This document shows positions 29,985-61,055 of a stretch of DNA of 64,000 nucleotides, in pieces. The translations under genes and the position numbers were made by a program. The stretch is taken from the NCBI GenBank assembly GCA_050015075.1, contig JBEKCB010000002.1:160001-224000 (forward strand). Direction: 5' to 3'. Origin of the DNA: Candidatus Brocadiia bacterium. GTDB taxonomy: Bacteria > Planctomycetota > Brocadiia > CAIUPP01. The notes beneath the pieces were generated by a model. The model was not told the origin of the DNA and did not search any database. It was given only the letters and a program-made list of their open reading frames with translations. The stretch's first letter is position 1. Every line of letters begins with the position of its first letter.

Positions 29985-30014
29985 CCGCGGTCTCCTGCAG
30001 GCGAAGATCTCGCG

Positions 30015-31148: not shown

Positions 31149-31161
31149 AGCGTTCTCCCTT

Positions 31162-34199: not shown

Positions 34200-34260
34200 T
34201 TGAGTAGTATTCCCTCAAGGCGTTCCAAGCGAGGCGCCATACGACGCCGGGGCGTGAAGC

Positions 34261-34294
34261 GTCACATTCTGACAGCGAAGGTCACGGCTGTCAA
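34261..34294 (-). promoter_or_regulatory. promoter TTGACA-N17-CAGAAT overlapped by palindrome GTCAGAATGTGAC
   Basis: upstream of the DUF4838-like operon. Confidence 0.6.
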
Positions 34295-34334
34295 GCAACT
34301 CCTCGGCAATCCGCCCGTCTTAAGGAGATTCCGC

Positions 34335-34362
34335 TTGACATTCCGCAGGAGGGATATAGAAT
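34335..34362 (+). promoter_or_regulatory. sigma70-type promoter TTGACA-N16-TAGAAT
   Basis: about 230 nt upstream of the 34594 start. Confidence 0.6.
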
Positions 34363-34593
34363 AGCAACGTGCTGCCGCAGCGTGTCGTAACGCGCCCGGT
34401 GTCTTGGCTTTGTCTGTGTTGCTCCGCTGACCACGGGCCCCTCTCGACGGCATTGCGCGCGAAGCCCCTGTCGCGCTTTTGAGCCGGCGCACGGTCTGCC
34501 GCCGGCGACCACGCCGGAAGATGCCGCTGAGACGATGCGTCTGTACTGTGAATACGAGGAAGCGGTAATGAGATTGAATGAGGGTTCCCAGCG

Positions 34594-36615
34594 GTGACAT
34601 GGCGCGCGGTTCTGGCCGGGATTCTGGCGGGCGCGTTCGTCTGCGCGTTCTGCTATTTCAACGACGCAGTGATGCACCAGACGATGTTCGTCGGCAGCAT
34701 TATGCCGATTTCAGTGTACGGGGGCCTGATCCTTTTCGTTCTCCTGATCAACCCGCTTCTGGGACGACGGGCATTCTCTGCCGGCGAGCTGACGGTGGCG
34801 CTGGCGATGACGCTGGTGATGTGCGGCATTCCCGGCGCGGGGTTGCTGCGGTCGGGCACGGCGGCGATGATGATGCCGTGGCATTGGGAGCGAAGCAACC
34901 CGGGTTGGCGGGCGGAGGGAATTGTCGAGACGGCGCCCCGGCAGATGCTGGCCTCGCCGGGGGACCAGGACGATGCGGTCAACGGTTTTGTGCGGGGGCT
35001 CGGCAACGGGCGCGGGACTCCCAGCCTGCGCGCGGTGCCCTGGCGGGACTGGACCCGGACGCTGGCCTTCTGGCTTCCGCTGGCTCTGCTGTTATGGGTC
35101 GGGCTGATCGGACTGGCGCTGGTGGTCCATCGCCAATGGTCGGAGCACGAGCACCTGCGCTATCCCCTGGCGACGTTCTCGAATGCGTTGCTGCCGGAGC
35201 CGGGGAAGCGATGGGCCGCCGTTTTCAGCGACCGCCTGTTCTGGATCGGGGCGGGACTCGTGTTCCTGGTCCATTTCAACAACTACCTCGCGGTATGGTT
35301 CCCGCAGTTTCTCGTGACGGTCCCCACCAAAATTGATCTGACCTCGCTCCTGCAACTGTCCCCCACCTACGCGGAAGGCGGCGGGTGGCCGCTGTTGCAG
35401 CCGCAACTGTATTTTTCAGTCCTGGCTTTCGCGTACTTCCTGGCCTCGGACGTGTCCTTGGCGATGGGGATCGGACCGTTCCTCAATCCGTTCCTGGTCG
35501 GCGCGCTGGCGAGCTACGGGCTTTCGCTCCAGTGGAGCGGGGTGAGCACGCCGAACGTGCAGAGCTTCATGAATTTCGGCGCCTATTTCGGCCTGCTGCT
35601 GGTGATCCTGTACACCGGGCGGCATTACTACAGCCAGGTATTTCGGCGGGCGGTCCTGATTCCGACGCCGGAGGCGCAGGCGTCGGAGACGGTCTGGGGC
35701 GCGCGCGTGTTCCTGCTCTGCGCCGGCCTCTTCACCGTCAGCCTCATTGCCGTGGGCCTGGACTGGCCGCTGGCGGTGCTGTACACGGGGTTAATCTTCG
35801 CGCTCTTCCTCGTCGTCGGCCGGCTCGTCGCGGAGACGGGGGCGTTTCTGGTCCAGGCGTACTGGTATCCCGGCGTCATCGTCTGGGGTTTCTTCGGCGC
35901 GAGGGCGCTGGGGGTGAAGAGCGTACTGATCATGCTGCTCTTGTCTTCGGTCCTAATCATCGATCCGCGCGAGGCCATGATGCCGTTCGTGGTGAATGCC
36001 TTGAAGCTGCTCGACCTGCGGCGCCAGAGAATGGGGCGGACGGCCGCGTGGTGCGGCATAGCGCTTCTGGTGGGGCTGGCGGTGGCGGTGCCGGCGACTT
36101 TGGCATTCCAATACGACCGGGGTGTTGATCGCGACGACGCGTTCGCGATGGTGGTGGCGTCGCAGAGACCGTTCGACAAGGCCATCGAAGTTAAGGAGCG
36201 ACTGGTCGGGCAAGGCAATTTGGCGGTGGCCGAGGCGACGAGCGGTTGGAGCCGGTTCGCCGAGATATCGCCCAAGGTGCCCTGCCTGATCGGGTTTGCG
36301 GGCGGCCTGACGGCGGTGCTCGCGTTTGCGGCGCTTCGGCTGCGCTGGGCAAAATGGCCGCTGCACCCGGTGTTGTTCCTGGTCTGGAGCACATGGGCCG
36401 GGCGGGACATGTCGGCCTCGTTCCTGGGCGGATGGATGATCAAGCTCTTGGTGACGCGGTACGGCGGAGCGTCATGGTATCAGCGGCTCAAGCCGCTGAT
36501 GTTCGGGCTGATTGCCGGGGAGCTGCTCGGCGGACTCGTGCCGATGGGGATCGGATTCATCTACTGGCTGAAGACCGGACTACCCCCCAAGGTATTCAAT
36601 ATTTTGCCGAACTAG
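34594..36615 (+). CDS. OPT-like polytopic membrane protein (DUF6785/6784-like), paralog 1
   Basis: 673 aa, many TMs; RQWSEHEHLRYPL, RLVAETG, WPLHPV, GLIAGE. Confidence 0.8.
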   Translation: MTWRAVLAGILAGAFVCAFCYFNDAVMHQTMFVGSIMPISVYGGLILFVLLINPLLGRRAFSAGELTVALAMTLVMCGIPGAGLLRSGTAAMMMPWHWERSNPGWRAEGIVETAPRQMLASPGDQDDAVNGFVRGLGNGRGTPSLRAVPWRDWTRTLAFWLPLALLLWVGLIGLALVVHRQWSEHEHLRYPLATFSNALLPEPGKRWAAVFSDRLFWIGAGLVFLVHFNNYLAVWFPQFLVTVPTKIDLTSLLQLSPTYAEGGGWPLLQPQLYFSVLAFAYFLASDVSLAMGIGPFLNPFLVGALASYGLSLQWSGVSTPNVQSFMNFGAYFGLLLVILYTGRHYYSQVFRRAVLIPTPEAQASETVWGARVFLLCAGLFTVSLIAVGLDWPLAVLYTGLIFALFLVVGRLVAETGAFLVQAYWYPGVIVWGFFGARALGVKSVLIMLLLSSVLIIDPREAMMPFVVNALKLLDLRRQRMGRTAAWCGIALLVGLAVAVPATLAFQYDRGVDRDDAFAMVVASQRPFDKAIEVKERLVGQGNLAVAEATSGWSRFAEISPKVPCLIGFAGGLTAVLAFAALRLRWAKWPLHPVLFLVWSTWAGRDMSASFLGGWMIKLLVTRYGGASWYQRLKPLMFGLIAGELLGGLVPMGIGFIYWLKTGLPPKVFNILPN

Positions 36616-36671
36616 CCGGCGTTGATGAATGAGATTGAGACCCGAGACCGTCTGAATAGGAATTCCCAGCC

Positions 36672-38693
36672 GTGACATGGCGCGCGGTACTGGCCGGGCT
36701 GGCGGGCGGCGCGTTCGTCTGCTCGTTCAGCTACTTCAACGACGCGGTCATGCACCAGACGATGTTGATCGGCAGCAACATGCCGATCTCGGTGTACGGC
36801 GGCCTGATCCTTTTCGTTTTGATCCTCAACCCGCTTCTGAAGCGCTGGGCATTTTCGGCCGCCGAGCTGGCGGTGTCGCTGGCGCTGGTGACGGTGATGT
36901 GCTGCATTCCCAGCGCGGGGTTGATGGAGACGTTCACGGCGACGCTGATGATGCCGTGGCACTGGGAGCGAAGCACGCCGGGTTGGCGGGCGGAGGGCAT
37001 TGTCGAGACGGCCCCTCGCCGGATGCTGGCCTCGCCGGGAGATCGAGAGGACGCGCTGAACGGTTTTGTGCGGGGCATCGGCAACGGGCGCGGCCTTCCC
37101 AATCCGCGCGAGGTGCCCTGGCGGGCATGGCGCGCAACGCTGGTCTTCTGGCTTCCGGTGATTCTGCTGCTGTGGATCGGGCTGATCGGACTGGCGCTGG
37201 CCGTGCATCGCCAATGGTCGGAGCATGAGCATCTCCGCTATCCGCTGGCGACGTTCTCGAACGCGCTCCTGCCGGAGGCGGGAAAGCGATGGGGCACCGT
37301 ATTCGGAGACCGCCTGTTCTGGATCGGGGCGGCGGTTGTGTTTCTGATCCACTTCAACAACTACCTCGCGACCTGGTTCCCGGAGTATCTCGTGACGGTC
37401 CCGACCAAGGTGGACTTGTCGTCCCTGGCGACGCTGTTTCCGACCTTCGCCGCAGGCAACGGCGGCGAAATGTTGCACCCAACCCTGTTTTTTTCGGTCC
37501 TGGCCTTCGCGTACTTCCTGGCCTCGGACGTGTCATTGGCGATGGGGATCGGACCGTTCCTCTATCCGGTGTTGGTCGGGGCGCTGGCCGGCTACGGGCT
37601 TTCGCTCACCGGCGGCGGAATGTCCGCCCCGAACGCGCAAAGCTTCATGAATTTCGGAGCTTATTTCGGCCTGCTGCTGGCGATCCTGTACACCGGGCGG
37701 CATTACTATAGCCGGGTATTTCGGCAGGCGGTCATGATCCCGACGGCGGAAGCGCAGCCGACGGAGGCGGTCTGGGGCGCGCGCGTGTTTCTGATTTGCG
37801 CCGGCCTCTTCACCGTCAATCTCGTCTGCGTGGGTCTGGACTGGCAACTGGCGATCCTGTACACCGGGTTGATCTTCATGCTCTACCTGCTCGTCGCCCG
37901 CCTCATCGCGGAGACGGGAGCGTTCATGGTCCAGCCGTATTGGTTCCCCTGCGTCACGCTCTGGGGAATCTTCGGCGCGAGGGCGCTGGGAGCGAAGACC
38001 GTGCTGATCATGCTGCTGCTCTCGGCGGTCCTGGCCGTTGACCCGCGCGAGGCGCTGATGCCGTTCCTGGTCAACGCCTTCAAGCTGCTCGACCTGCGGC
38101 GGCAGAGAATCGGCCGGCCGGCCGCGTGGTGCGGTGTGGCCCTTTTGATCGGGCTGGCGGTGGCGGTGCCGGTGACTTTGGCGTTCCAGTACGACCGGGG
38201 CATTGATCATGACGACTGGTGGGCGACGGAGATCGTGCCGCAGAGACCGTTCGACAAGGCCGTCGAAGTTCGGGAGCGGCTGACGGCGCAAGGCGCGCTG
38301 GCGGCGGCCGAGGCGACGACCGGATGGCGGCGCTTCGCGGAGATGTCGCCCAAGGCGCCCTGCCTGATCGGGTTCGGGAGCGGCCTGGCGGTTGTGCTCG
38401 CGTTTGCGGCGCTCCGCCTGCGCTGGCCGAAATGGCCGCTGCACCCGGTGCTGTTCCTGGTTTGGGGCACGTATGCCGGGCAGCAGTTCGGCGCCTCGTT
38501 CCTCGGCGGATGGGGCGTTAAGCTCCTGGTGACTCGGTACGGCGGAGCCTTGTGGTATCAGCGGCTCAAGCCGCTCATGTTCGGGCTGATCGCCGGCGAG
38601 ATGCTCGGAGGGCTCGCGCCGATGGCGATTGGATTCGTCTACTGGCTGTCCACGGGACTGCCGCCGAAGAGTTTCTACATTCTTCCGGGCTAG
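36672..38693 (+). CDS. OPT-like polytopic membrane protein (DUF6785/6784-like), paralog 2
   Basis: collinear 673-aa tandem paralog of the preceding gene. Confidence 0.8.
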   Translation: MTWRAVLAGLAGGAFVCSFSYFNDAVMHQTMLIGSNMPISVYGGLILFVLILNPLLKRWAFSAAELAVSLALVTVMCCIPSAGLMETFTATLMMPWHWERSTPGWRAEGIVETAPRRMLASPGDREDALNGFVRGIGNGRGLPNPREVPWRAWRATLVFWLPVILLLWIGLIGLALAVHRQWSEHEHLRYPLATFSNALLPEAGKRWGTVFGDRLFWIGAAVVFLIHFNNYLATWFPEYLVTVPTKVDLSSLATLFPTFAAGNGGEMLHPTLFFSVLAFAYFLASDVSLAMGIGPFLYPVLVGALAGYGLSLTGGGMSAPNAQSFMNFGAYFGLLLAILYTGRHYYSRVFRQAVMIPTAEAQPTEAVWGARVFLICAGLFTVNLVCVGLDWQLAILYTGLIFMLYLLVARLIAETGAFMVQPYWFPCVTLWGIFGARALGAKTVLIMLLLSAVLAVDPREALMPFLVNAFKLLDLRRQRIGRPAAWCGVALLIGLAVAVPVTLAFQYDRGIDHDDWWATEIVPQRPFDKAVEVRERLTAQGALAAAEATTGWRRFAEMSPKAPCLIGFGSGLAVVLAFAALRLRWPKWPLHPVLFLVWGTYAGQQFGASFLGGWGVKLLVTRYGGALWYQRLKPLMFGLIAGEMLGGLAPMAIGFVYWLSTGLPPKSFYILPG

Positions 38694-38781
38694 CCGGCGT
38701 TGCGGACGAGGAATGTTTCATGAATCTTGGCGCGCATTTCGGTATGCTATGGGTGATCCTGCTTCCGCCCTGGGTGTGTTG

Positions 38782-40248
38782 ATGAAAAAGATCGAGATCA
38801 GAGATCAGCCGTCGCTGGGGGTCGGGAAGACCTTGTCCCTGACGCTTACCGGCATCCGCTATCGTCTTTTCCGGTCGCTGGTGACCGTCGGCGTTGTGGC
38901 GGTGGCGATGGCGTTCCTGATGAACGTGCTGAGCGAGAGTCTCGTCCGGGGCGCGGTGCTCCGGGCCACGACGCTGCGCGCGGCTCAGTTGCACCAGGCC
39001 TACGTGTGGGTCACGAAGCTCTCCGACCCCGGCGTGCTGGATTCCATTCTGACCGCGATGGCGGCCCCGCGCCCCGAGGCGGTTGACGAGGCCGTCTCCA
39101 TGGCGAAGCTGCCGCCGGAAGACGGGGTCTTTCTGGAGAGCCGGTGCCGGCAGGCGGCCGAATACCTGCGCTTCTTTGCGGCGCTCGATTACGGCGCGCG
39201 ACGGCAGCTCACCGGCAAGGCGGAGGGTACGGCCATTTTCGACGGTCTCCAATCGCCGGCGGCACAGGCCGATTTCTTCGGCAAGGCAAAAGAGATTCGG
39301 TCGCTCCGGCTTCCAGGCGGCGCCGACACGTTCCAGAAGTTCCTGCGCGAGTGGCCGGGAGTGAAGGAAAAACTGGAGCGCATCCGCGCGGCGCGAGCGG
39401 CGGCGATCGCGCAGCTTCAAGGCTCGCTGCGCGGTCGTACGGTCATGGAAGCGCTTGCCGAGGCCGACGGCGCGTTCGGCGCGGCGATCCGGGCGGCCGG
39501 GTTCCGTTTCCCGGAAGATGTGGCGCGCACCGTCGCCGAGCAGGCGCGCCAGGCGTGCGACGGCCAGTTCCTGGAAGCGGGGCTTCTCCGACCCGCCGTG
39601 CGGCAGGCCGTCGCCGGCCGGCTGGACCTCACATTGAACGAGGTCAACCCGCAGGTCCTCTGGACGTTCCTGAGGAGCCGCGAGAGCGCCGCATGGTACC
39701 TGGACCGGCTCAAGGAAGCCGACATTCCCGTGGCCGGCCTGACGCCCGAGCGCCTGATGGCGCTGGCGCGCGTCCAGACGGAGGAGGCGACGCTCGCGCA
39801 ACTCGTGCCGCTTCAGGCCGACGTCGAAGCGGGCGAGACCGGAATCCAGGAACGGATGCTCTGGCTGATCCTGGTCTCGATGGTCGTCTGCGCGGTGGGG
39901 ATCGCCAACGCCATGCTCATGTCCGTCACGGAGCGTTTCCGGGAAATTGCGACGTTGAAATGTCTCGGCGCGCTGGACCGGACCATCATGGGCATGTGCG
40001 TCATCGAAGCGACGATCCTCGGCGTGACGGGCGGCGCGGCCGGCGCCCTGGCCGGGACACTGCTCGGGTTGAGCCGGATGAGCGCCGCGTTCGGCGGCAT
40101 TGCGCTGAGCACGATGCCGATCGGCGCGTTGTGCCTGGCCATGGCCGGTTCGATCCTGGTCGGAATCGCCCTGGCCGCGGTGGCGGCATTGTACCCCTCG
40201 TTCAAAGCCGCGCGGCTGGCGCCGATGGAAGCGATGCGGGTAGAATGA
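38782..40248 (+). CDS. FtsX/MacB-type ABC permease with large extracytoplasmic domain
   Basis: RSLVT + TM1; GIANAMLMSVTERFREIATLKCLGA; ALYPSFKAARLAPMEAMRVE. Confidence 0.88.
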   Translation: MKKIEIRDQPSLGVGKTLSLTLTGIRYRLFRSLVTVGVVAVAMAFLMNVLSESLVRGAVLRATTLRAAQLHQAYVWVTKLSDPGVLDSILTAMAAPRPEAVDEAVSMAKLPPEDGVFLESRCRQAAEYLRFFAALDYGARRQLTGKAEGTAIFDGLQSPAAQADFFGKAKEIRSLRLPGGADTFQKFLREWPGVKEKLERIRAARAAAIAQLQGSLRGRTVMEALAEADGAFGAAIRAAGFRFPEDVARTVAEQARQACDGQFLEAGLLRPAVRQAVAGRLDLTLNEVNPQVLWTFLRSRESAAWYLDRLKEADIPVAGLTPERLMALARVQTEEATLAQLVPLQADVEAGETGIQERMLWLILVSMVVCAVGIANAMLMSVTERFREIATLKCLGALDRTIMGMCVIEATILGVTGGAAGALAGTLLGLSRMSAAFGGIALSTMPIGALCLAMAGSILVGIALAAVAALYPSFKAARLAPMEAMRVE

Positions 40249-40284
40249 CGGGAACGCGGACTGTAGAGTGAGCAACCACAAATT

Positions 40285-41049
40285 ATGAATATGACCATCG
40301 CCATAACATCCGCGAAGGGGCGCGTGATCATCCGCACCGTGAACCTCAAGAAAATCTACATCAAGAAGGACGTGATAACCGAGGCGCTCCGCGGCGTGGA
40401 CGTGGAGATTTTCACCGGCGAGTTCATCTCTCTCATGGGGCCGTCCGGCTCCGGCAAGAGCACCTTCTTCAACATGGTCGGCGGGCTGGACAGTCCCACG
40501 AGCGGGCGCGTGTTCATTGACGAAGTGGACGTGGCGCAATTGACGGCGGTGGAACTGGCTTTTCTGCGATGCCGGAAGATCGGCTACATCTTCCAGAGCT
40601 ACAACCTGATCCAGTACCTGACGGCGCTGGAAAACGTCACCACGCCGATGGCGTTCGCCGGCGTGGACCCCGACGAGGCGCGCACGCGCGGGATGGAACT
40701 CCTGACGCTGGTGGGCCTGAAGGAGCGGTGGACCCACCGGCCGATCGAAATGTCCGGCGGCCAGCAGCAGCGCGTCGCGATCGCGCGTTCCATGGCCAAC
40801 CGCCCGTCGCTGCTCCTGTGCGACGAGCCGACGGCCAACCTGGACCTGAAGACCGGCCGGGAGATCCTGGAGATCCTCCGGATGCTGAACCAGGAACGCA
40901 ACATGACGATTCTTTGCGCCACGCACGACCACCGCATGTTGGACATCTGCGACCGGCTGATCTGGATCCGTGACGGCCGCGTCGAGCGGATCGCGCGCCG
41001 GGACCAGGTGCAGATCGAAGTCGGCAGCATCGGCGGAGAAAAAGCCTAA
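40285..41049 (+). CDS. ABC ATP-binding protein (LolD/MacB type)
   Basis: GPSGSGKST, MSGGQQQRVAIAR, CDEPTANLD, THD. Confidence 0.93.
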   Translation: MNMTIAITSAKGRVIIRTVNLKKIYIKKDVITEALRGVDVEIFTGEFISLMGPSGSGKSTFFNMVGGLDSPTSGRVFIDEVDVAQLTAVELAFLRCRKIGYIFQSYNLIQYLTALENVTTPMAFAGVDPDEARTRGMELLTLVGLKERWTHRPIEMSGGQQQRVAIARSMANRPSLLLCDEPTANLDLKTGREILEILRMLNQERNMTILCATHDHRMLDICDRLIWIRDGRVERIARRDQVQIEVGSIGGEKA

Positions 41050-44000
41050 GTGCAAATACGGAAGCCTGTTTTCTCGCGTTCATACTCTCTCGCGTTGATC
41101 GGCGCGCTTCTCCTGGCCGCCGCTCCGCGCGCGCCGGCGGAAAACACCGACGCGTTCCACGCCGATTGCCTGGCGCTGACGGCGGACGCTCATCGGCTGA
41201 CCGGCAGCCCCGAATACCGGCGCGCGGCCGACTACGTGGAGCAGCGGTTGCGCGCGAGCGGCATGGACGAGGTCGTCGTCGAGGAGTTCCCCGCCGTCCG
41301 CGCCGTCGTGAAGCGCTGCGACATGACGCTGGAGAATTCGCGGCGGCTCGATCTCCTCCCGATGCGGGCGAACGGGCTGATGCTCCCCGTCACGCCGGCG
41401 GACGGAATCACCGGGCCGATTCAATACGCCGGGATGGGCCGGCTGGAGGACTACGGCCGCGCGCCGGCCGGCGCGATTGTGGTCCTGGACTACAACGCCG
41501 GCGCGGCGTGGATGGATGCCTTCCGGATGGGGGCCAAAGCGGTGGTGTTCGTCCGCAACGGCCCCACGACGGCGCCGGCCGCCCACTCGATCGAGAACCA
41601 CGCCGACTTCCCGCGTTTCTACTATCCGGGTCCGGCCAGCGACCTGCCCGACGGCGCGCCGGCTACCCTTCGCAGCGAAATCGTGTGGGAAAGCGCCACC
41701 GGCCGCAACGTCTTCGGTTTCCTCAAAGGAACCAAGCCGACGTTCGACCTGGAGAAAGAGGAATGCCTTATCCTGGCGGCGAATCTCGACAGCTTCGGCG
41801 AGGTCCCCGAGCGTTCGCCCGGCGCGCGCGGCGCGGCCAACGCCGCCGCCTTGATCCAGATGGCGGAGTACCTGAAGGCGCATCGTCCGCGCCGGCACGT
41901 GCTGCTGGCCTTCTTCGACGGCCAGGCCCAGGGGCATGCCGGAAGCCGGGCGTTCTACCAGGCGCTCGAACCGACCGACAACGAAGCCGGGCTGGTGAAG
42001 CGCGAAGCGTCCTGGAGCGAGGAGACGAAATTCCTCGGCGAGTTGGTCGAAGCCGCCAAGTCGCAGGACCCGTTTGCTCCGGCCGCCGCCGGTGCGGAAC
42101 TGCTCCTTCGATTGAAGGAAAAGGCCAAATGGCACGCCAGCACGCTCAGTATTGATCTGGCGGAATGGCGCCGTAGCGCGGCGCTCGGCACGGCCGCGCC
42201 GGCGGAGGTCGAAGCGCTCCAGAGCCGGATCACGCAGGCGGAGGCGGCCAAGGAGCGGTGGAACGCACTGCTGCGCTGCCTGTCGCGTCGAACACCGGTC
42301 GAGACGGTCCGGACGGAGCTGACGCAGGTCTTCAAGGAGGTCGGCGACGACGTGGACGCCCGCCGGGCGGAATTGGCCGCGGACCGCCGCACGCTCGACG
42401 CGGACCGCCGGCTCCAGGAACTGGTCGGGCAACGATGGATCAGCCTTCATCTCTCGCTGATGCTCGGGGACACGACGCCGCGCTGCGCGTTGATCATCGG
42501 CGGCGAATCGCGATTCCATGCCATTCAGGACAACCCCGGTCTCTACGACCGCATCCAGGCCGCCGCCCTGGCCGCCGCCAGGGAATCGAATGTCCAGCAG
42601 TTCGAGATCTCCTCAGCGGACCTGTCGTTCCCGCAGACGCGCGCGCTGTGGGCCGCGCCGAAGCTGGTCCATAGCGGCGAGGTGGCCGGGCGAATGGGAA
42701 TCTACGATGCCGTGCTGGGCACGGTGCAGGAGGACCTGCGGCTCGAGGGTACGCCGGACGACGTCCCGGCCGCCCTGGACCTGGCGCGGATCGAAACGCA
42801 GGCGCAGGGAATGGCGCCGTTCGTCAAGTCCCTCGCCGACTGCAAGGAGCTTTCGGCGCTCCGGGTGATCGTGCCCGACTACCAGTTCTTCCCCGCCAAG
42901 TTCGAATCCGATCACCGCTCGCACGGACCGCTGGTTATGAGCCGCGCGCCGGGCAGCGCGCTGGCGGACCACCCCCTGAACGGCGCCATGGTCCAGGTCC
43001 TTGCGGACCGCCGGCAGCAGTTCAGCCTCCTTCCCAGGCGCGCTTACGCCTTCAATGATTTCATCCTGCTGCGCACGAACCGGAACGGCGCCTTTCCCTT
43101 CGGCCCGGTGCGCCCGCAGCCGTCCGATCTGACCATCCAGTCATTCGCCGTCTCCTTCGATGAGCACGGGCAGATCCTCCAGGCGAGCACGTACTACTCG
43201 GGTTGGGAGACGCCGTACGAGCGGCTGGAGACCTTCCCCGCAACTCACGGCTGTCTCGTCGTCTCGCAGCGCGCCATGGCCACCGACCCGGTTTCCACGC
43301 GGGTCGAGGCGCAGGTCATGGATGCGCGCTCGGACAGCCCGCTCGACACTGAGCACGCCTGGACCATGACGCGCGACAACAGCGTCGCCTGGTTCTGCGA
43401 GCCGAAGGTGCGGGCGACGAAGCTTTTCGGCCTTCGCTCGGTGGTAGCCTTAAGCGACAAGCCGGTGCTCTATACCAACGTCGCGGAGCGTTCGGCGGAG
43501 GACCTCTGGCAGTTGGACCAGGGGCGCATGCTGACGCTCCAGTCGCGCGGGGTGAACCACCACGCTCTCGACGAGTTGCAGGGGCGCAGCGAGGACCTCT
43601 TCCGCGAGGCCGGCTCCACGGAGGGCGTCCGGGTCGCGGAAGCCCTGCGCGCCTCTTCCTTCATGGCGGGAGCGCCGATTTACTGGGAAGTGCGCACCGC
43701 GCTCGACGACCTCGTCCGAGCCGTGCTGATCCTCCTGGCGCTCGCGGTGCCCTTCGCCTTCGCCCTCGAACGCCTGCTGATCGGCGCGACCAATATTTAC
43801 CGCCAGATCCTCTGGTTCGGCCTCTTCTTTACCGCAACGTTCCTGTTGCTCTTCTTCACCCATCCGGCGTTCGCCGTCTCCAACAGCTCGATCATCATCT
43901 TCCTGGGATTCGTCGTACTGGTACTCTCGCTCGTCGTCATCACGATCATCATGCGGAAATTTGAGACGGAGCTCAAAGCGCTCCGCGGGATGACCACCAC

Positions 44001-45786
44001 CGTTCACAGCGCTGACGTCTCCCGCTTCGGGACGATCATGGCGGCCATGAGCATGGGCGTCTCCACCATGCGCCGCCGCCCGTTGCGCACGGTGCTGACC
44101 GCCGTGACGATCCTCCTGCTGACTTTCACGATCCTCTGCTTTGCCTCCTTCGGCACGGAGCTCGGCGTGATCCGTCTCCGCCTGGGCCCGCCGACCCCTT
44201 ATGCCGGCGCGCTGCTGCACGGGGTCAACTGGGAAATCCTGGACACGCACCTGCTGGAGGTCCTTCGCAGCCGGTGGCCCGACGCGGCGGTCTGCCCGCG
44301 GTACTGGCTGACGCGCGAGAACGACGACGAGCCGGAGTGGACGCTCACGCGCAGCGACGGCACGCGCCCCGCACCGTTGCTCGGGGTCATGGGACTGAGC
44401 CCCGATGAGGTGCGCTATCGCCCCGACCTGGCGGCGCTCCTGGGCAAGCCTTCCACTTCCGACGCGCCGCGAATCTGGATCACCCGGGCCATGGCGGACC
44501 AACTAGGCGTCAAGCCCGGAGAGCAAGTGCTCCTGGGCGGCAAGGCGCTGGAGGTGGGGCCCCTGCTCGACTCCGCGCAGCTCTCCATCGTGCAGGACAT
44601 GGACGAGAGCAGCATCGTGCCCGTGGATTTCCGGCAGCCGCGCAGCAGCCCGCCGCCCCAGACGCCTGAGGCGATGCTGGCGCCGCTCAAGGAAAGCTGG
44701 TCGGCGCTCCCGGTGGACTCGACGGCGATCATCTCGGCGGAAACATCGCTGACTCTCGGCGCGACGCTGCGCGCGGCGCATCTCTATGCCCCGGATGCCG
44801 GGAGAGCCGCCCTCATCGCCGACGACCTGGCGCGGATGGTTCCGTTCCCCGTCAACGCCACGCGCGAGGACGGCGTCTATCGGCTTCTCCTGGGCCCCAA
44901 GCTGAAGGCCAGCGGCGCCGCCGACCTCTTCTTCCCGCTCCTGCTGGGCGGCCTGGTGATCTTCGGCGCGATGCTCGGCTCGGTCGCCGACCGCGAAAAG
45001 GAAATCTACAGTTTCAGCGCCCTCGGCCTGGCGCCGCCCCACGTCGCCGGCCTCTTCTTCGCGGAGGCCATGGTCTACTCCATCCTCGGCGGCCTGGGCG
45101 GTTATCTCGTCGCGCAGGGGATGGTGAAGGCGCTCTCGTTCCTGGCCGGCTTCGGCATCGTGCGCAGGCCGGAGATGAATTATTCCTCCGGCAACGCGGT
45201 GATCGCGATCCTCATCGTGATGGCCACGGTCCTGCTCTCGGCGCTGTACCCGGCGATCCGCGCCAGCCGCAGCGCCAATCCCGGCATCCTGCGCGCGTGG
45301 CGGCCGCCGCGCCCGGTGGGAGACCGCTGCGACATCGTCTTCCCGTTCACGATCTCCGATCACGATGTCGAGGGCGTCATCGGCTTCCTGAAAGAGCACT
45401 TCGACAACTTCGGCGATACGGGCCTGGGTGTCTTTATCGCCAAAGACACCTGTGTGACGCTCGGGAAGGAAGGCCGCCTGGTCCTGGTCTCCGCCGTCTC
45501 CCTGGCGCCGTTCGACCTGGGAGTGGCTCAGCACTTTGAGCTGTCCTATCGCCCCAGCGAGATTCCGGGGATTGACGAGGTCGCTCTCCTCCTCGTCCGC
45601 CAGTCCGGCGAGCCCAAGGACTGGCAGCGCCTCAACAAGCTCTTCCTCGACGACCTGCGCAAACAGTTCCTCATCTGGCGCTCGCTCGCCCCGGAGACGA
45701 TGGATTCATACCGGAGGAATGCGGAGCTGCGGACGCAGAATGCCGAAGCCGGCAACCGGGAAGGACAAGAGTTGAAAGATGGCTGA
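41050..45786 (+). CDS. 1578-aa protein: signal peptide, PA/M28-like ectodomain, multi-TM FtsX-type permease, C-terminal soluble domain
   Basis: HRLTGS..AADYV, PA segment, GRNVFG..ILAANLDS..PGA; MRRRPLRTVLT, MLGSVADREKEIYSFSALGLAP, LYPAIRASR. Confidence 0.8.
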   Translation: MQIRKPVFSRSYSLALIGALLLAAAPRAPAENTDAFHADCLALTADAHRLTGSPEYRRAADYVEQRLRASGMDEVVVEEFPAVRAVVKRCDMTLENSRRLDLLPMRANGLMLPVTPADGITGPIQYAGMGRLEDYGRAPAGAIVVLDYNAGAAWMDAFRMGAKAVVFVRNGPTTAPAAHSIENHADFPRFYYPGPASDLPDGAPATLRSEIVWESATGRNVFGFLKGTKPTFDLEKEECLILAANLDSFGEVPERSPGARGAANAAALIQMAEYLKAHRPRRHVLLAFFDGQAQGHAGSRAFYQALEPTDNEAGLVKREASWSEETKFLGELVEAAKSQDPFAPAAAGAELLLRLKEKAKWHASTLSIDLAEWRRSAALGTAAPAEVEALQSRITQAEAAKERWNALLRCLSRRTPVETVRTELTQVFKEVGDDVDARRAELAADRRTLDADRRLQELVGQRWISLHLSLMLGDTTPRCALIIGGESRFHAIQDNPGLYDRIQAAALAAARESNVQQFEISSADLSFPQTRALWAAPKLVHSGEVAGRMGIYDAVLGTVQEDLRLEGTPDDVPAALDLARIETQAQGMAPFVKSLADCKELSALRVIVPDYQFFPAKFESDHRSHGPLVMSRAPGSALADHPLNGAMVQVLADRRQQFSLLPRRAYAFNDFILLRTNRNGAFPFGPVRPQPSDLTIQSFAVSFDEHGQILQASTYYSGWETPYERLETFPATHGCLVVSQRAMATDPVSTRVEAQVMDARSDSPLDTEHAWTMTRDNSVAWFCEPKVRATKLFGLRSVVALSDKPVLYTNVAERSAEDLWQLDQGRMLTLQSRGVNHHALDELQGRSEDLFREAGSTEGVRVAEALRASSFMAGAPIYWEVRTALDDLVRAVLILLALAVPFAFALERLLIGATNIYRQILWFGLFFTATFLLLFFTHPAFAVSNSSIIIFLGFVVLVLSLVVITIIMRKFETELKALRGMTTTVHSADVSRFGTIMAAMSMGVSTMRRRPLRTVLTAVTILLLTFTILCFASFGTELGVIRLRLGPPTPYAGALLHGVNWEILDTHLLEVLRSRWPDAAVCPRYWLTRENDDEPEWTLTRSDGTRPAPLLGVMGLSPDEVRYRPDLAALLGKPSTSDAPRIWITRAMADQLGVKPGEQVLLGGKALEVGPLLDSAQLSIVQDMDESSIVPVDFRQPRSSPPPQTPEAMLAPLKESWSALPVDSTAIISAETSLTLGATLRAAHLYAPDAGRAALIADDLARMVPFPVNATREDGVYRLLLGPKLKASGAADLFFPLLLGGLVIFGAMLGSVADREKEIYSFSALGLAPPHVAGLFFAEAMVYSILGGLGGYLVAQGMVKALSFLAGFGIVRRPEMNYSSGNAVIAILIVMATVLLSALYPAIRASRSANPGILRAWRPPRPVGDRCDIVFPFTISDHDVEGVIGFLKEHFDNFGDTGLGVFIAKDTCVTLGKEGRLVLVSAVSLAPFDLGVAQHFELSYRPSEIPGIDEVALLLVRQSGEPKDWQRLNKLFLDDLRKQFLIWRSLAPETMDSYRRNAELRTQNAEAGNREGQELKDG

Positions 45787-47785
45787 ACCCGCCAGAAAAC
45801 AGGATCGGGAGTTGGAGGAATTCCGCGGCGCGATGACGCCGCCCGCCTTCTTCGAGGAAGGGTTCAATTGGACCTCCCTGGCCGGAGCGATCTTCATCGG
45901 CCTCTTCATGGTGCCCGGGGCCATCTACATGGGCCTCCTGGCCGGCCAGGGAATCGGGCCGGCGGCCCAATGGGTCACCGTGATCCTCTTCATCGAGGTG
46001 GCCCGCCGCGCCCAGAAGCAACTCAAAGGCGCGGAAATCTTCGTCCTCTTCTTCATGGCCGGCATCATGATGGCCGCCACCGCCGGCGGCGCGGGCGGAT
46101 TGCTCTGGAGCCAGTTCTTCGTGCGCAGTGAGTCCGCGACCGCCTTCGGCCTGGCCGGAAAAATTCCCACCTGGTTTGCGCCGCCGGCCGATTCCTCTTC
46201 CTACAGCCAGCGCAGTTTCCTCCGCATGGACTGGCTCGTGCCGATCGTCCTGATGGTCTTCCAGTTCATCGTCGGCCAGTTGAGCATCATGCTCATCGGG
46301 TACGCGTTCTTCCGGGCCACCAGCGACGTGGAGAAGCTCCCGTTCCCGATGGCGCCGATCGGGGCGCAGGGCGTCATGGCCCTGGCGGAGGACGTGGAGA
46401 AAAAGGAAACCGCCGCCGGCGAGCGCCCGTGGCGCTGGAGGGTCTTCGCGATCGGCGGCGCGATCGGGCTGGCCTTCGGCGCGGTTTACCTGCTCCTGCC
46501 GACCCTCACCGGCGGGCTGACCGGGAAGCCGGTCATGCTCCTGCCGATTCCCTTCAGCGACTTCACCGTCAAGACCCAGAGTTATCTGCCCGCCGTGGCC
46601 ACCGGCATGGCCTGGAACCTCGGCGACCTGATCGTCGGCATGGTGCTGCCGTTCTGGGCGATGGTCGGCAGCCTCGTCGGCCTGTTCATGTCCATGGCCG
46701 CCAATCCGATCCTCTATCACTTGGGCGTCCTCTCTTCCTGGACGCCCGGCGACGACACCGTCACCACGCTGTTCAAGAACAACGTGGACTTCTATTTCAG
46801 CTTCGGCATCGGCATCTCCGTGGCCATCGCCATCGTCGGCATAACGCAGGCGGTCCGCGCCTTCCTGCGGAGCGCCCGCGCGCGAAAGGCCGCCGGGCGG
46901 GCGCCGGCCAGCGACATCCCTAAAGGACGCGGCGATTTCCGGATGTGGATCGTCATCGTCGGTTATACGCTCCTGACGCTCTCTTACATCCTCCTCTCCG
47001 GCTGGCTCGTCCACTGGCACAAGGGAGTCATGCTGGTGCTCATCCTGATCGGGTTTGTTTACACGCCGCTCATCGGCTATGTCACCACCCGCCTCGAAGG
47101 AATCGCCGGGCAGGTCGTGGAAATCCCCATGGTCCGCGAGGCCGGACTCATCCTCAGCGGATTCCGGGGCATCCAGGTCTGGTTCCTGCCCACCGCCAGC
47201 TCCAGCATGTCGCAGATCAGCGGGATGACCGTTTTCTACCGCCAGTGCGAGCTAACCGGCACGAGCTTCCGAAGCATCTGGAAGAGCGTCGTCGCCCTCT
47301 TCCCGGTGATCCTGATCTGCACGGTCCTCTTCTCCAGCTTCATCTGGGGCCTCGCCGAGCTTCCGTCGGTGGTGTATCCGTACTCCCAGAAGATGTGGGA
47401 ACTTTCGGCGGCCAATTCGTGTGTGGTTTACTCCTCCACGACCGGGGATTATTCCATCTTCGAGGACGCCTTCAAATGGAAGAACGTGTTCGTTGGCACC
47501 GGCTTCGGCATGATGATCTTCGGCGTTCTCACCCACCTTGGCGCGCCGATCTTCCTGGTTTACGGTCTCGTGCGCGGGCTCGGCCAGAGCCTGCCGCACA
47601 TCATCATCCCGCAGTTTATCGGCGCGCTGATCGGGCGGTATTACTTCAGGAAGAAACTCGGTCTGAAGTGGCGGCAATACGTCCCCGTCGTCGCCGCCGG
47701 CTTTGCCTGCGGCATGGGGCTGGTGGCCACCGTCGGCGTCGGGATCACGTTCCTGAGCAAGGCGGTCGTCGCGCTGCCGTACTAG
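45779..47785 (+). CDS. OPT/YSL-like putative peptide transporter
   Basis: 668 aa, many TMs; DVEKLPFPMAP, VAAGFACG; overlaps the preceding gene. Confidence 0.75.
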   Translation: MAEPARKQDRELEEFRGAMTPPAFFEEGFNWTSLAGAIFIGLFMVPGAIYMGLLAGQGIGPAAQWVTVILFIEVARRAQKQLKGAEIFVLFFMAGIMMAATAGGAGGLLWSQFFVRSESATAFGLAGKIPTWFAPPADSSSYSQRSFLRMDWLVPIVLMVFQFIVGQLSIMLIGYAFFRATSDVEKLPFPMAPIGAQGVMALAEDVEKKETAAGERPWRWRVFAIGGAIGLAFGAVYLLLPTLTGGLTGKPVMLLPIPFSDFTVKTQSYLPAVATGMAWNLGDLIVGMVLPFWAMVGSLVGLFMSMAANPILYHLGVLSSWTPGDDTVTTLFKNNVDFYFSFGIGISVAIAIVGITQAVRAFLRSARARKAAGRAPASDIPKGRGDFRMWIVIVGYTLLTLSYILLSGWLVHWHKGVMLVLILIGFVYTPLIGYVTTRLEGIAGQVVEIPMVREAGLILSGFRGIQVWFLPTASSSMSQISGMTVFYRQCELTGTSFRSIWKSVVALFPVILICTVLFSSFIWGLAELPSVVYPYSQKMWELSAANSCVVYSSTTGDYSIFEDAFKWKNVFVGTGFGMMIFGVLTHLGAPIFLVYGLVRGLGQSLPHIIIPQFIGALIGRYYFRKKLGLKWRQYVPVVAAGFACGMGLVATVGVGITFLSKAVVALPY

Positions 47786-47819
47786 TGTGGCGTCCCGGAA
47801 AGAAGCTGGATAGTGATGA

Positions 47820-47846
47820 GTCATTCCGAGCGAAGCGAGGAATCTC
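47820..47846. repeat. short palindromic repeat unit GTCATTCCGAGCGAAGCGAGGAATCTC
   Basis: ATTCC...GGAAT stem related to the 58907-58975 element; abuts REP copy 2. Confidence 0.5.
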
Positions 47847-47853
47847 ATACGCC

Positions 47854-47910
47854 GCTTGCAGTGGCGCCGTCAGGCGCTATTTCGTATGCCCTGACGGGCA
47901 CACTACGAGC
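47854..47910. repeat. 57-bp GTAG-type REP-like repeat, copy 2
   Basis: matches 2059-2115 with a few substitutions. Confidence 0.8.
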
Positions 47911-47992
47911 AGCCAGAGCGCGCAGAGTACTGCGCGCGACATGACGCGAGCTGGACTTATGTATGTCATTTCCGGGACAGTAGGATTCTGAA

Positions 47993-48727
47993 ATGAACTC
48001 AGGCGAACCGGCGGTCCTGATCTCGGTGCGGAACCTGAACAAGGAATTCCACATGGGCCGCGCCGTCGTCCAGGCGCTCAGGGACGTCAACGTGGACGTC
48101 CTCACGGGAGAGTACCTTTCCATCATGGGACCGAGCGGCTCCGGCAAAACGACGCTGTTCAACATGCTCGGCGCGCTCGACCGGCCCACCTCCGGGCATG
48201 TCACCGTCGCCGGCGTGGACCTGACCAAGCTCTCGGCGAAGCAACTGGCCTATTTCCGCGGCAACCATATCGGCTACGTCTTTCAGAACTACAATCTCAT
48301 CCCCGCCTATAGCGCCGTGGACAACGTGGCGATGCCCCTCATTTTCAGCGGCGTGCCCCACGACCGCGCCGCCGCGCGCGCCGCAGAGGTCCTCGGCAAA
48401 GTGGGCCTGAGCCATCGCCTGACCCACCGCCCCGACGAACTCTCCGGCGGCCAGCAACAGCGCGTCGCCATCGCCCGCGCGCTGGCCAACGAACCGGCGA
48501 TCATCCTGGCCGATGAGCCCACCGGCAACCTCGACCTGCACACCGGCGAGGAGATCATCCACCTGCTCTTCCGCCTCAGCAAAGACGAAGGGGTGACAGT
48601 CATCGCCTCGACCCACGACTACAAAATGCTCGACGTGTCCGACCGCATTCTGTGGATCAAGGACGGCGCCGTGGAGAAACTCCAGCGCCGCTCGGAATTG
48701 GACATCCGGATTGGAAACGTGAAGTAA
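47993..48727 (+). CDS. ABC ATP-binding protein (LolD/MacB type)
   Basis: GPSGSGKTT, LSGGQQQRVAIARAL, ADEPTGNLD, THD. Confidence 0.93.
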   Translation: MNSGEPAVLISVRNLNKEFHMGRAVVQALRDVNVDVLTGEYLSIMGPSGSGKTTLFNMLGALDRPTSGHVTVAGVDLTKLSAKQLAYFRGNHIGYVFQNYNLIPAYSAVDNVAMPLIFSGVPHDRAAARAAEVLGKVGLSHRLTHRPDELSGGQQQRVAIARALANEPAIILADEPTGNLDLHTGEEIIHLLFRLSKDEGVTVIASTHDYKMLDVSDRILWIKDGAVEKLQRRSELDIRIGNVK

Positions 48728-48756
48728 GCGAACTCTGCAGGACGCCGAGACGAGGC

Positions 48757-50184
48757 CTACCGCTCCAGGTACGCGTCCACCGCATCGGCGGCGCTGCGGC
48801 CGAGCCCGATGGCCCGGACGACGAGCGAGGCGCCGAGGACGGAATCGCCCGCGGCGAACACGCCCCGCGCCGAGGTCGCGAAGGAGTTGTTGACCTGGAT
48901 GTTCCCGCGCTCGTCCGTGCGGAGGTCCAGGTCGCGGACGAGCGGGCCGTGCTCCGCGTGAAGGAATCCCATCGCGAGGAGCACCAGGTCGGCCTTGAGG
49001 TCGAACTCCGAACCGGGCACTTCGCTGAACTGCGACCGCCCCGCCGCGTCCGGCGCCGACCAGCGGACCTTGACGCAGCGCAGCTTGCGGACGCGCCCCT
49101 CGCCGCCGACGAATTCCTTCGCCGTCGCGCTCCACAGCCGCTCGCAGCCTTCCTCGTGCGAGGTCGAGGTGCGCAGGATCAGCGGCCAGGTCGGCCACGG
49201 GTTCTGCGGCGTCCGCTCCGCGGGCGGCTCGGGAAGGATTTCGATCTGGCGGATCTCGCGCGCTCCCTGCCGGCGGCAAGTACCGATGCAGTCCGCGCCG
49301 GTATCGCCGCCGCCGATGACGACCACGTTCAGGTCCTTCGCGGAGATGCGGTTCTCCGGCGGGATGATCTCGCCCGCGTTCAGCCGGTTCTGCTGCGAGA
49401 GGAAATCCGTGGCGAAGTGGATGCCGCCGAGTTCGCGGCCGGCGATCTTCAAATCGCGCGGCACCCGCGAGCCGGTCGTCAGCACCAGGGCGTCGAAGCT
49501 GCTGCGCAGGTAGCGCCCCGAAAGGTCCAGACCGGCTTCGACGCCGGTCTCAAACGCCACGCCTTCGGCGCGCAACTGCTCGACGCGCCGGTCAATCACC
49601 CATTTCTCGAGCTTGAAATCCGGGATGCCGTACCGCAGCACGCCGCCGACGGCCGGGTCACGCTCGAAGACCACCACCTGGTGGCCGCGCCGCGCCAACT
49701 GCTGCGCCGCCGAAAGCCCCGCCGGCCCCGAGCCGATGATCGCGATCTTCCGGCCCGTGCGGAACGCCGCCGGCTCCGGCTGCACCCACCCTTCGTGCCA
49801 GCCGCGCTCGATGATCTGCAGCTCGATCTGCCGGATCGAGACCGCCGGCTGGTTGATGGAGAGCGAGCAGGCCGCCTCGCACAGCGCCGGGCAGATGCGG
49901 CCCGTGATCTCCGGCAGATTGTTGGCCGAGTGCAGCAGGTCCAGCGCCTTGCGCCACTGGCGCCGATGGACCATCTCGTTCCAGTCCGGCACCAGCGCCT
50001 TCACCGGGCAGCCGTAAGCGTGGCAATACGGAATGCCGCAGTCCATGCAGCGCGAAGCCTGCGTCTCGAGCCTCTCCGCGCCCAGGCGCTGCTCGATCTC
50101 CCTGAAGTCGCGGACCCGCTCGGCGACGGGCCGTTTGGCCGCGTCCTCGCGGGTGTGCAGGATGAATCCGACCGGGTTACCCAT
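48757..50184 (-). CDS. gltD: glutamate synthase small subunit
   Basis: MGNPVGF, RCMDCGIPYC, GRICPALCE, GSGPAG, GGGDTGADC, AAGD. Confidence 0.95.
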   Translation of the reverse strand: MGNPVGFILHTREDAAKRPVAERVRDFREIEQRLGAERLETQASRCMDCGIPYCHAYGCPVKALVPDWNEMVHRRQWRKALDLLHSANNLPEITGRICPALCEAACSLSINQPAVSIRQIELQIIERGWHEGWVQPEPAAFRTGRKIAIIGSGPAGLSAAQQLARRGHQVVVFERDPAVGGVLRYGIPDFKLEKWVIDRRVEQLRAEGVAFETGVEAGLDLSGRYLRSSFDALVLTTGSRVPRDLKIAGRELGGIHFATDFLSQQNRLNAGEIIPPENRISAKDLNVVVIGGGDTGADCIGTCRRQGAREIRQIEILPEPPAERTPQNPWPTWPLILRTSTSHEEGCERLWSATAKEFVGGEGRVRKLRCVKVRWSAPDAAGRSQFSEVPGSEFDLKADLVLLAMGFLHAEHGPLVRDLDLRTDERGNIQVNNSFATSARGVFAAGDSVLGASLVVRAIGLGRSAADAVDAYLER

Positions 50185-56186: not shown

Positions 56187-56314
56187 TCACGTCTCCTTTC
56201 CAAGGCCGATGGAACGCCGCGCTTCGGCGTGGCCGGTGATCGGACGCGACAGCGCAAGTCGCTCCATCATGTAGGACGGAATTGGCGACAGGGCCAGAGC
56301 ACTGGCGTGGCATT

Positions 56315-56330
56315 CGCAAACAACGTGCCA
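56315..56330 (-). promoter_or_regulatory. sigma54 promoter TGGCAC-N5-TTGCG (glnA)
   Basis: canonical -24/-12 spacing. Confidence 0.8.
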
Positions 56331-56404
56331 CACCCTGCGTCCGCAAGAAACGTATTATACAAACGCTTCGGCCCGAAAACAACCTGAAAATGGCCGATAA
56401 AAGG

Positions 56405-56448
56405 CTACCGTTTCGTATGTTTTTTGCGCAAAAAATACCGAAATGTAT
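56405..56448. promoter_or_regulatory. two TAC-N6-GTA palindromes 30 bp apart, putative activator sites for glnA
   Basis: CTACcgtttcGTAT and ATACcgaaatGTAT. Confidence 0.6.
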
Positions 56449-56469
56449 GAACTTATTTCTCGCGTCCGA

Positions 56470-56811
56470 TTATCCGATGGCGTCATGGCCCTCTTCGCCC
56501 GTTCGGATCCGCACGCATCGTTCCAGCGGCAGCACGAAGATCTTGCCGTCGCCGAGCTCTCCCGTGCGGGCGCCCTTGGTCAGAGCGTTGATGGCCGGTT
56601 GAACGAAATCGTCATTGACCGCGATTTCCAGGCGAATCTTGCGCAACAGGTTCCCGCCCTCTTTGATACCGCGGTAGACCTCGGTCACTCCCTTCTGCCG
56701 GCCGTGACCCACGACTTCGCTGACCGTAATCAGGTTCACATCGGCCGCATACAGCGCCTGCTTGACTTCCTCGAGCCGGTACGGCTGAATAATGGCGACG
56801 ATCAACTTCAT
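56470..56811 (-). CDS. glnK: PII nitrogen regulator
   Basis: GHGRQKG.TEVYRG, TGELGDGKIFV, RIRTGE; follows amtB. Confidence 0.92.
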   Translation of the reverse strand: MKLIVAIIQPYRLEEVKQALYAADVNLITVSEVVGHGRQKGVTEVYRGIKEGGNLLRKIRLEIAVNDDFVQPAINALTKGARTGELGDGKIFVLPLERCVRIRTGEEGHDAIG

Positions 56812-56820
56812 GTGGGGTTC

Positions 56821-61034: not shown

Positions 61035-61055
61035 CCGAGACTCCTTTTCCAAAAG

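Follow-up and report, generated by a model that had tools for sequence, protein, structure and literature searches.

The locus described here raises the question of why the genes of an ATP-binding cassette (ABC) transporter of type VII should share one operon with those of OPT-like carriers, and what their products do together. It lies in a 64,000-nucleotide stretch from a Candidatus Brocadiia bacterium (contig JBEKCB010000002.1, positions 160,001 to 224,000), hereafter the window, and comprises seven genes, which we named from Pfam and NCBIfam scans: A1 and A2 (DUF6785+DUF6784 proteins), F1 and F2 (FtsX permeases), D1 and D2 (ATPases) and O (OPT-like). We found that they belong to a conserved system, undescribed as far as searched, which is new as a system and built of known folds. 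The reading that we favour, and whose chances of being right we consider evenly balanced, is an ATP-driven importer in which a common motor serves exchangeable DUF6785 carriers, with ATP in place of protons. Below, G000 is the source genome, other G labels are comparison genomes, C labels are contigs and L labels are loci.

We first describe the membrane proteins of ~670 aa. A preliminary description of the locus had read all three as OPT-like; their OPT/YSL character held in fold and profile, while their membership of one family did not. Judged from domain profiles, they make up two families, namely two DUF6785+DUF6784 proteins and one protein scoring as OPT. A1 and A2 were 77% identical, and a copy standing as an orphan on contig C52 was 82% identical to A2; at third codon positions these three had identities of 0.71-0.78. 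Blastp of A1 and A2 against O detected no similarity. All motifs quoted earlier were located: the two DUF6785 copies both carry EHLRYPL (position 186) and GLIAGE (638), and O carries EKLPFPMA (185) and GFACG (641). An AlphaFold (AF2) model of A1, the only DUF6785 copy folded, was built from a 32-row alignment (predicted local distance difference test, pLDDT, 87). Barley YS1 (PDB 7WSR) was the sole solved structure that it matched (Foldseek E 3e-9, TM-score 0.62; Z 23.4 with 540 residues aligned at a root-mean-square deviation of 3.7; next match Z 6.6), and the model gives DUF6785 the fold of this plant transporter. The single-sequence AlphaFold model of O was unusable (pLDDT 42), and its OPT assignment rests on profiles: in hhalign, O aligned with 29 canonical bacterial OPTs over 552 columns (prob 94.7), DUF6785 aligned with the same 29 (prob 97.8), and O and DUF6785 aligned with each other over the N-terminal third (prob 96.2). 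Hidden Markov model profiles of O and DUF6785 gave 0 matches to solved structures at E 10. Given the A1 fold and these profile alignments, the OPT call therefore holds, for two separate subfamilies. Mean identity among homologues was 0.53 for O and 0.31 for DUF6785. Both frequently terminate in LPx, at the position of the YS1 dimer strand; YS1 is an elevator carrier that dimerises via its scaffold and a C-terminal strand (PMC9691689, in the part available).

According to the same part of that source, the proton-binding residues of YS1 are Asp490 and Asp494. Because the canonical bacterial OPT set aligned to YS1 (E 3e-41), these positions could be transferred to O and DUF6785. The two columns were acidic in 25/29 and 28/29 canonical OPTs, but in 0/89 DUF6785 and 0/60 O, and likewise within about three columns around, the mapping being indirect, via two profile alignments at 13-17% identity. 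The earlier view of the OPT proteins as proton-coupled carriers is weakened by this loss. We also considered E414 and the DxRE motif of DUF6785 as YS1 proton sites and dropped them, as Asp446 maps near G416 and Asp490/494 map to 465/469. As side observations, some DUF6785 proteins (L145:10234-13233, L012:219-2717, L119:4801-7236, L100:6203-8593) carry inserts of ~130-350 aa near model position 120-130, which had no Pfam match and may be variable outer binding domains, and a stand-alone DUF6784-only gene (L091:7951-8277, 109 aa) lies immediately upstream of a full DUF6785 gene.

The motor parts agreed with the earlier naming of two LolD-type ATPases and two FtsX-type permeases. D1 and D2 are 50% identical and keep Walker A, Q-loop, signature, Walker B and H-loop all intact. 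The LolD model of NCBIfam (TIGR02211) scored best for both (214 and 236 bits, cut-off 308), while ECF ATPase models reached 140-154 bits; F1 obtained 42.9 bits for LolC/E (cut-off 362). F1 and F2 each have a four-transmembrane-helix (4-TM) FtsX/MacB membrane domain in which TM1 and TM2 are separated by an outer domain (PF02687, hydropathy). The MacB-like periplasmic core PF12704 had no match in the window F1 and F2, and matched the homologues L001 and L055. The outer domain of F1 spans ~310 aa in the window and down to ~40 aa in some homologues (alignment of 26). F2 starts with a signal-like N-terminus, followed by a PA+M28 pseudo-peptidase and by helical and other outer domains; next come three extra conserved TM helices, the FtsX 4-TM core with a periplasmic domain, and a conserved cytoplasmic C-terminal domain. 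Profile matches were the 2EK8 aminopeptidase (E 5e-21), nicastrin, nicalin and the transferrin receptor for the head, and MacB, LolF and YtrF for the FtsX part. The M28 zinc ligands are lost in the window F2 (N245, Q292, A293 at their positions) and incomplete in all 34 aligned homologues: the His (HxD) was found in 3/34, the Asp in 0/34 at column 261 and 10/34 at column 260, and the Glu-Glu pair in 1/34 at column 292 and 0/34 at column 293. An active M28 peptidase was rejected on these grounds. The membrane and C-terminal parts of F2 were better conserved (mean identity 0.43-0.61; membrane parts alone 0.46-0.61) than its outer parts (0.20-0.32). A complex prediction restricted to O and two F2 membrane pieces (877-1037 and 1286-1417) scored 0.15 against a mark of 0.32, which is evidence neither way, and F2-O covariation over 60 paired rows yielded solely clade-splitting columns.

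We then examined how far these genes travel together. A GTDB scan with O gave 97 relatives, of which 80 were retained as loci, many clipped by contig ends or by the 10-kb flank. F2 was present in 72 of the loci, an ATPase in 57, F1 in 50 and DUF6785 in 37, and two genes absent from the window recurred, the ~290-aa P290 (51 loci) and a PqqD-like gene (47 loci). The full system normally has eight gene types, and the window copy is without P290 and the PqqD-like gene. The preliminary description had listed its seven genes correctly; the M28-like N-terminal domain of the 1578-aa permease and the two further genes went unmentioned. Of the 75 loci whose sequence reached 600 nt or more upstream of O, 71 had F2 as the gene immediately before it (a script found 68, and L008, L011 and L077 were recognised by eye), the exceptions being L072 (F2 ~2 kb off), L033 and L035 (without F2) and L054 (short). 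By record title, the loci belonged to Planctomycetota, Verrucomicrobiota, Lentisphaerales, Kiritimatiellota, Sumerlaeota, Omnitrophota and Deltaproteobacteria (labels of metagenome-assembled genomes, MAGs, as recorded). The survey across phyla bore out a conserved association: among 301 genomes of the own phylum (Planctomycetota), DUF6785 was over cut-off in 50, O in 50 and both in 49, with 8 expected if independent, and in the second phylum (Verrucomicrobiota, that of G301) DUF6785 and O occupied the identical 27/201 genomes; genomes that are kin do not count as independent, here or in the tree counts below. O, P290 and DUF6785 were found in the identical 14 of 21 genomes made up of G000 and 20 relatives, and the system in 0/7 genomes of a sister family. 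DUF6785 occurred without O in 1/50 own-phylum and 0/27 second-phylum genomes; the sole case is G094 (89% complete), where F2 adjoins DUF6785. Canonical OPTs occur alone in 41/151 genomes. Their genes stand mostly in genomes without this system (family f14 0/8; G000 none), and family f74 holds both.

The source genome has a second, complete operon of eight genes on C14, and its two motors have a single P290 and a single PqqD-like gene between them. Because the same-genus genome G507 also has one P290 for two full O, the lack of P290 and PqqD in the window operon is probably real, and the two parts are probably shared or dispensable. P290 gave weak structure-profile matches only, and the atlas search supplied no family name. 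No modifying enzyme or biosynthetic gene recurred in the 80 loci among ORFs (open reading frames) of at least 120 aa, a range above short precursors; a cluster for ribosomally synthesised and post-translationally modified peptides was not adopted, the window having no PqqD-like gene and the loci no recurring modifying enzyme. Two loci, L119:12509-14491 (G258) and L190:125-2116 (G006), represent a very divergent subtype with long branches for O and DUF6785, whose DUF6785 may be overlooked by family searches, and an atlas cluster (rank 3) of O look-alikes, 70% bacterial, hints at archaeal members.

The numbers of the two OPT-fold families differed strongly. Of 13 relatives taken without selection, 11 had more DUF6785 genes than O (82 vs 16 genes, hand count), up to 15:1 in G517. 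Contig C10 of that genome (L223:4320-14406) carries five tandem DUF6785 genes, mutually just 50-60% identical, and another three in a row lie 36 kb off. Five genomes picked for many candidates had DUF6785:O ratios of 7:1, 8:1, 12:2, 18:3 and 11:4. F2 and P290 counts tracked O and not DUF6785. No DUF6785 stood beside F2-O in the near-closed genomes G064 (8 contigs, 7:1) and G285 (6 contigs, 8:1); G302 holds one core operon without DUF6785 plus five orphans, and on the closed chromosome of Fontivita pretiosa a single F2-O is accompanied by a DUF-P290-PqqD-F1-D block 0.4 Mb off and by four orphans. The retention of DUF6785 and its rarity without the core point to dependence on the core. FastTree trees of 98 DUF6785 (34 operon, 64 orphan) and 42 O showed matching clades, and the pairs L179/L186 and L144/L185 appeared in both. 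A total of 17 orphans grouped in clades with operon copies (support 93-100), and each of these 17 sits in a genome that holds an O of the corresponding clade. In G000, which has three orphans (on C52, C9 and C8), the trees pair the window motor with A1, A2 and the C52 copy, and the C14 motor with the C14, C9 and C8 copies. These gene counts and trees fit sharing of the ECF kind, in which carriers would exchange on the motor.

From the folds, the dead active site, the gene linkage, the copy-number asymmetry and the tree congruence we infer subunit contacts, transport direction, energy coupling and cargo as follows. F1 and F2 would pair like LolC/LolE and carry both ATPases, as family knowledge suggests. 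O would be the fixed OPT-fold partner of F2, and DUF6785 would dock on the F1/F2/D/O core, in the simplest form as a YS1-type O:DUF6785 heterodimer, acting as the variable elevator carrier that selects the cargo. One motor would be used in turn by several DUF6785 paralogues, whether these are encoded in the operon or elsewhere, much as an ECF module is by S-components, and ATP-driven motor movement would substitute for proton coupling. The dead PA+M28 head of F2 would be a binding or scaffolding domain and not an enzyme, and the cargo would most likely be small solutes from glycan or sugar-acid breakdown. In its fullest form, which we advance tentatively and think somewhat more apt to be wrong than right, this would be a new ABC importer class, in which a MacB/Lol-type motor drives an elevator-type OPT-fold heterodimer sideways, with a fixed O and up to 15-18 exchangeable DUF6785. 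If true, a secondary-carrier fold would have come to be powered by ATP, and glycan-degrading Planctomycetota and related phyla would possess a major uptake route that has so far escaped notice.

For the cargo we looked at neighbouring genes. The gene divergent to the window operon encodes a DUF4838 protein whose N-terminal domains are of glycosidase type. Heparinase-like and GH129-like genes precede the C14 operon, and GH4 and an MttB-like gene precede the C9 orphan; the G302 orphans have GH42, GH2 and a lyase-like gene close by, whereas none of the four Fontivita orphans has a sugar gene as neighbour. We compared 67 genes flanking orphans in G258, G130 and G278 with 121 controls, which came from regions set arbitrarily in these three genomes and excluded 24 genes cut by a region edge; the genes were called by our own script, so that some calls may be wrong. 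Genes on a sugar/solute catabolic or regulator list made up 21/67 orphan neighbours and 13/121 controls (p 7e-4), the list having been fixed after viewing the test genes and before the control; a generous list gave p 0.16 in this first test. Glycoside hydrolases or lyases alone counted 7 against 0 controls, six of the seven coming from the single genome G130. In a replicate with 20 regions, selected among the 28 matches of G517, G512 and G514, the sugar/solute list gave 8/39 vs 5/89 (p 0.02), and the strict hydrolase test did not replicate (3/39 vs 3/89, p 0.37). Peptidases were not enriched, the 67 orphan neighbours holding one M42 peptidase and one transglutaminase-like gene and the 121 controls five peptidase matches. 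The orphan neighbours tie the system, to a modest degree, to sugar and small-solute catabolism.

Several points tell against an importer of this kind. Type VII motors have no membrane pathway or pore; their outer domains move and the work is done outside the membrane (PMC5985334, as far as the text was available), and therefore sideways coupling to a carrier has no precedent among the MacB-type proteins treated there. The large outer domains of F1 and F2 fit periplasmic work. About 22 of the 27 second-phylum genomes have equal DUF6785 and O numbers, and the DUF6785 expansion is therefore lineage-specific. As many as 47/64 orphans fall in clades without any operon copy, the predicted grouping of the G130 orphans with the operon copy G130:C151 failed, and orphans duplicated from their own operon would match their own motor even without binding it. 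Acidic residues kept near the proton site (D457 in 63/89 and E414 in 75/89 DUF6785; E440 and E491 in O) might carry protons. To these we add the low identity behind the aspartate mapping, the kinship of the genomes, and the limits of the neighbour test given above, including the choice of list, the weight of G130, the failed hydrolase replicate and the Fontivita orphans.

The alternative that survives best, although we think it unlikely, is peptide capture and hand-over, in which a peptide or glycopeptide, once caught by the pseudo-peptidase head, would be extracted or released in the periplasm by the motor and imported by the OPT-fold carriers, and the PqqD-like protein of relatives would bind it in the cytoplasm. 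The PA+M28 fold of the F2 head and the PqqD/RRE-like gene in 47/80 loci would suit such a role, many prokaryotic OPTs are predicted peptide carriers by gene context (PMC3061005, in the portion available), and type VII motors act on the outer side (PMC5985334, likewise in part). The incomplete M28 active site of all 34 F2 examined, the single PqqD-like gene for two motors in G000 and the scarcity of peptidases beside orphans relative to controls argue otherwise. We regard a role in export or envelope building as improbable. In that case the OPT-fold proteins would flip or export lipid, glycan or protein, the motor would lift cargo from the membrane as in LolCDE or YbbAP-TesA, and the dead M28 domain would act on membrane proteins as in nicastrin or nicalin. 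Patchy presence (50/301 genomes; none in the sister family) and repeated expansion of one subunit beside catabolic genes better fit nutrient uptake than a core envelope task, and no biosynthetic gene recurs in the 80 loci; on the other side, the type VII examples in the available parts of the literature are extractors, exporters or cell-division activators (PMC5985334, PMC12646458), the F2 profile matches nicastrin and nicalin, and loss of the proton-coupling pair also fits a non-import role. A similarly small chance attaches to linkage without mechanical coupling, with O and DUF6785 as self-energised secondary carriers and the ABC part as sensor, regulator or substrate processor of the same pathway. 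OPT/YS1 proteins are proton symporters, possibly functional as monomers (PMC9691689, in part), other conserved acidic residues are kept in DUF6785 and O, and many DUF6785 genes stand alone; yet a self-sufficient carrier would be expected without the core, as canonical OPTs are, whereas DUF6785 lacks O just in G094, where F2 is its neighbour.

Coming back to the proposed shared-motor importer, its likeness to known systems is partial. It resembles the type VII ABC systems (LolCDE, MacAB-TolC, FtsEX-EnvC, YbbAP-TesA) in its LolD/MacB-type ATPases and in two 4-TM FtsX-type permeases, presumably heterodimeric as in LolC/LolE, and the motor of YbbAP-TesA too couples to a hydrolase on the outer side (PMC12646458, in the part available). 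It differs from them in having no adaptor, TolC or LolA-like gene, in missing all equivalog cut-offs, in an F2 whose hydrolase-like domain is fused and dead and which has three extra TM helices and a C-terminal domain, and in being always encoded with OPT-fold proteins, which are unmentioned in the available parts of three type VII papers. The OPT/YSL family (PF03169; YS1 7WSR) shares the predicted YS1 fold of DUF6785 and full-length profile homology with O and DUF6785, but identity is 13-17%, the mapped columns lack the Asp490/Asp494 pair that canonical bacterial OPTs keep, and here two distinct subfamilies are tied to an ABC motor. The accessible part of an OPT family survey has no mention of FtsX, and its lone mention of ABC contrasts peptide ABC transporters (PMC3061005). 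Among inactive M28-fold proteins (transferrin receptor, nicastrin, nicalin), which share a PA+M28 fold without metal ligands, the F2 head stands apart as bacterial, fused to an ABC permease and bearing a ~180-aa poorly conserved insert. In ECF transporters, several S-components share one energising module. The likeness to ECF (type III ABC; group II) lies in the logic alone, with a single motor that would serve many scattered subunits, each embedded in the membrane and selecting a substrate, and with no soluble binding protein; here there is no EcfT or S-component fold, the ATPases score higher as LolD, and the variable subunit is a ~670-aa OPT-fold protein. We rejected a MacAB-TolC pump (no adaptor or TolC-like gene in scanned window genes or among families recurring in the 80 loci), LolCDE (LolC/E and LolD equivalog cut-offs missed by F1, D1 and D2) and an ECF transporter (no EcfT or S-component Pfam/NCBIfam match for the membrane proteins).

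We found no description of DUF6785 or of an OPT/type VII combination in the literature searched, a search outside which most subscription journals and TCDB lay. This agrees with the earlier statement that no characterised system is known to combine the two; the genes co-occur elsewhere, the OPT fold holds and no characterised transporter was matched, and the interpretation first given to the locus is partly supported. As classified in the available parts of two sources, ABC importers are of types I-III, type III consisting of T plus S components (PMC8386196), and MacB-like proteins are exporters or mechanotransducers (PMC8386196, PMC5985334). Neither category accommodates a type VII motor linked to carriers of the OPT fold. 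Should these carriers prove exchangeable and driven by ATP, the shared-motor design of ECF would have arisen independently a second time, and DUF6785, present in ~1/6 of sampled Planctomycetota genomes, would gain a function. The cultured Fontivita pretiosa B-254, with a closed genome (one motor, five DUF6785), makes the system testable.

The operon itself is compact. All seven ORFs lie on the + strand and span 34594-48727 behind a candidate sigma70-like promoter, as first described (Table 1); promoter-like sites numbered 8, vs 2.0 +/- 1.7 in shuffles. The intergenic gaps are 56 nt (A1-A2), 88 nt (A2-F1), 36 nt (F1-D1) and 207 nt (O-D2), and the central genes abut or overlap as had been noted (D1 abuts F2; F2/O overlap 8 nt). 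The start codon position of F1 is backed by the alignment of 26 homologues. The O-D2 gap repeat is a dispersed genome element outside the machine; some of its genome copies are near full length, and it looks like a miniature inverted-repeat transposable element or a repetitive extragenic palindrome. An Rfam scan of 34100-48900 gave zero matches. Also in line with the preliminary description, no solute-binding protein, MacA adaptor or TolC was found among the Pfam-scanned window genes, the gltD/gltB/glnA-like ORFs at 48760-56186 being left unscanned. Judged by O, the closest relative with a name (95%) is a MAG of Ca. Brocadiia (Planctomycetota), which has the same DUF-DUF-F1-D-F2-O order as far as its contig end.

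Table 1. Coordinates of the operon genes and associated elements in the window.
Feature	Position	Strand	Basis
Candidate sigma70-type promoter, TTGACA-16-TAGAAT	34335..34362	+	consensus match only, 11/12, ~230 nt before A1
Second sigma70-type candidate site	34294-34266	-	faces divergent DUF4838 gene
A1, DUF6785+DUF6784 membrane protein, 673 aa	34594..36615	+	PF20581 E 4e-74, PF20580 E 2e-17
A2, second DUF6785 copy, 673 aa	36672..38693	+	Pfam scan, blastp
F1, small FtsX-type permease, 488 aa, 4 TM	38782..40248	+	PF02687 E 1e-13, hydropathy
D1, LolD/MacB-type ABC ATPase, 254 aa	40285..41049	+	TIGR02211 best match, under cut-off; motifs
F2, giant FtsX permease, 1578 aa	41050..45786	+	PF04389 E 7e-7, PF02687 E 2e-9
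O, OPT-like membrane protein, 668 aa	45779..47785	+	PF03169 28.5 bits, cut-off 25.8
Dispersed intergenic repeat between O and D2, 207 nt	47786..47992	.	166 blastn matches across genome
D2, second LolD-type ATPase, 244 aa	47993..48727	+	TIGR02211 best match; motifs

Upstream of the operon, positions 28494-34199 (- strand) encode the DUF4838 protein with a GH67/GH20-like N-terminal domain, two beta-propeller-like proteins of no confident family and an MttB-like methyltransferase; the DUF4838 gene lies in a lower-GC stretch (0.55 vs ~0.65), and the MttB-like gene upstream of the C9 orphan DUF6785 is at L003:6030-7457. Downstream, a nitrogen cluster (48760-62171, - strand) holds ORFs that resemble glutamate synthase and glutamine synthetase, as judged from their sequence, together with two P-II genes, genes for an ammonium transporter and a BBP2 porin, and, at 59145-61052, an amino-acid permease to which a P-II domain is fused. 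Finally, kdpABC at 20234-25339 includes a KdpC-like ORF (345 aa) with two KdpC-matching stretches.

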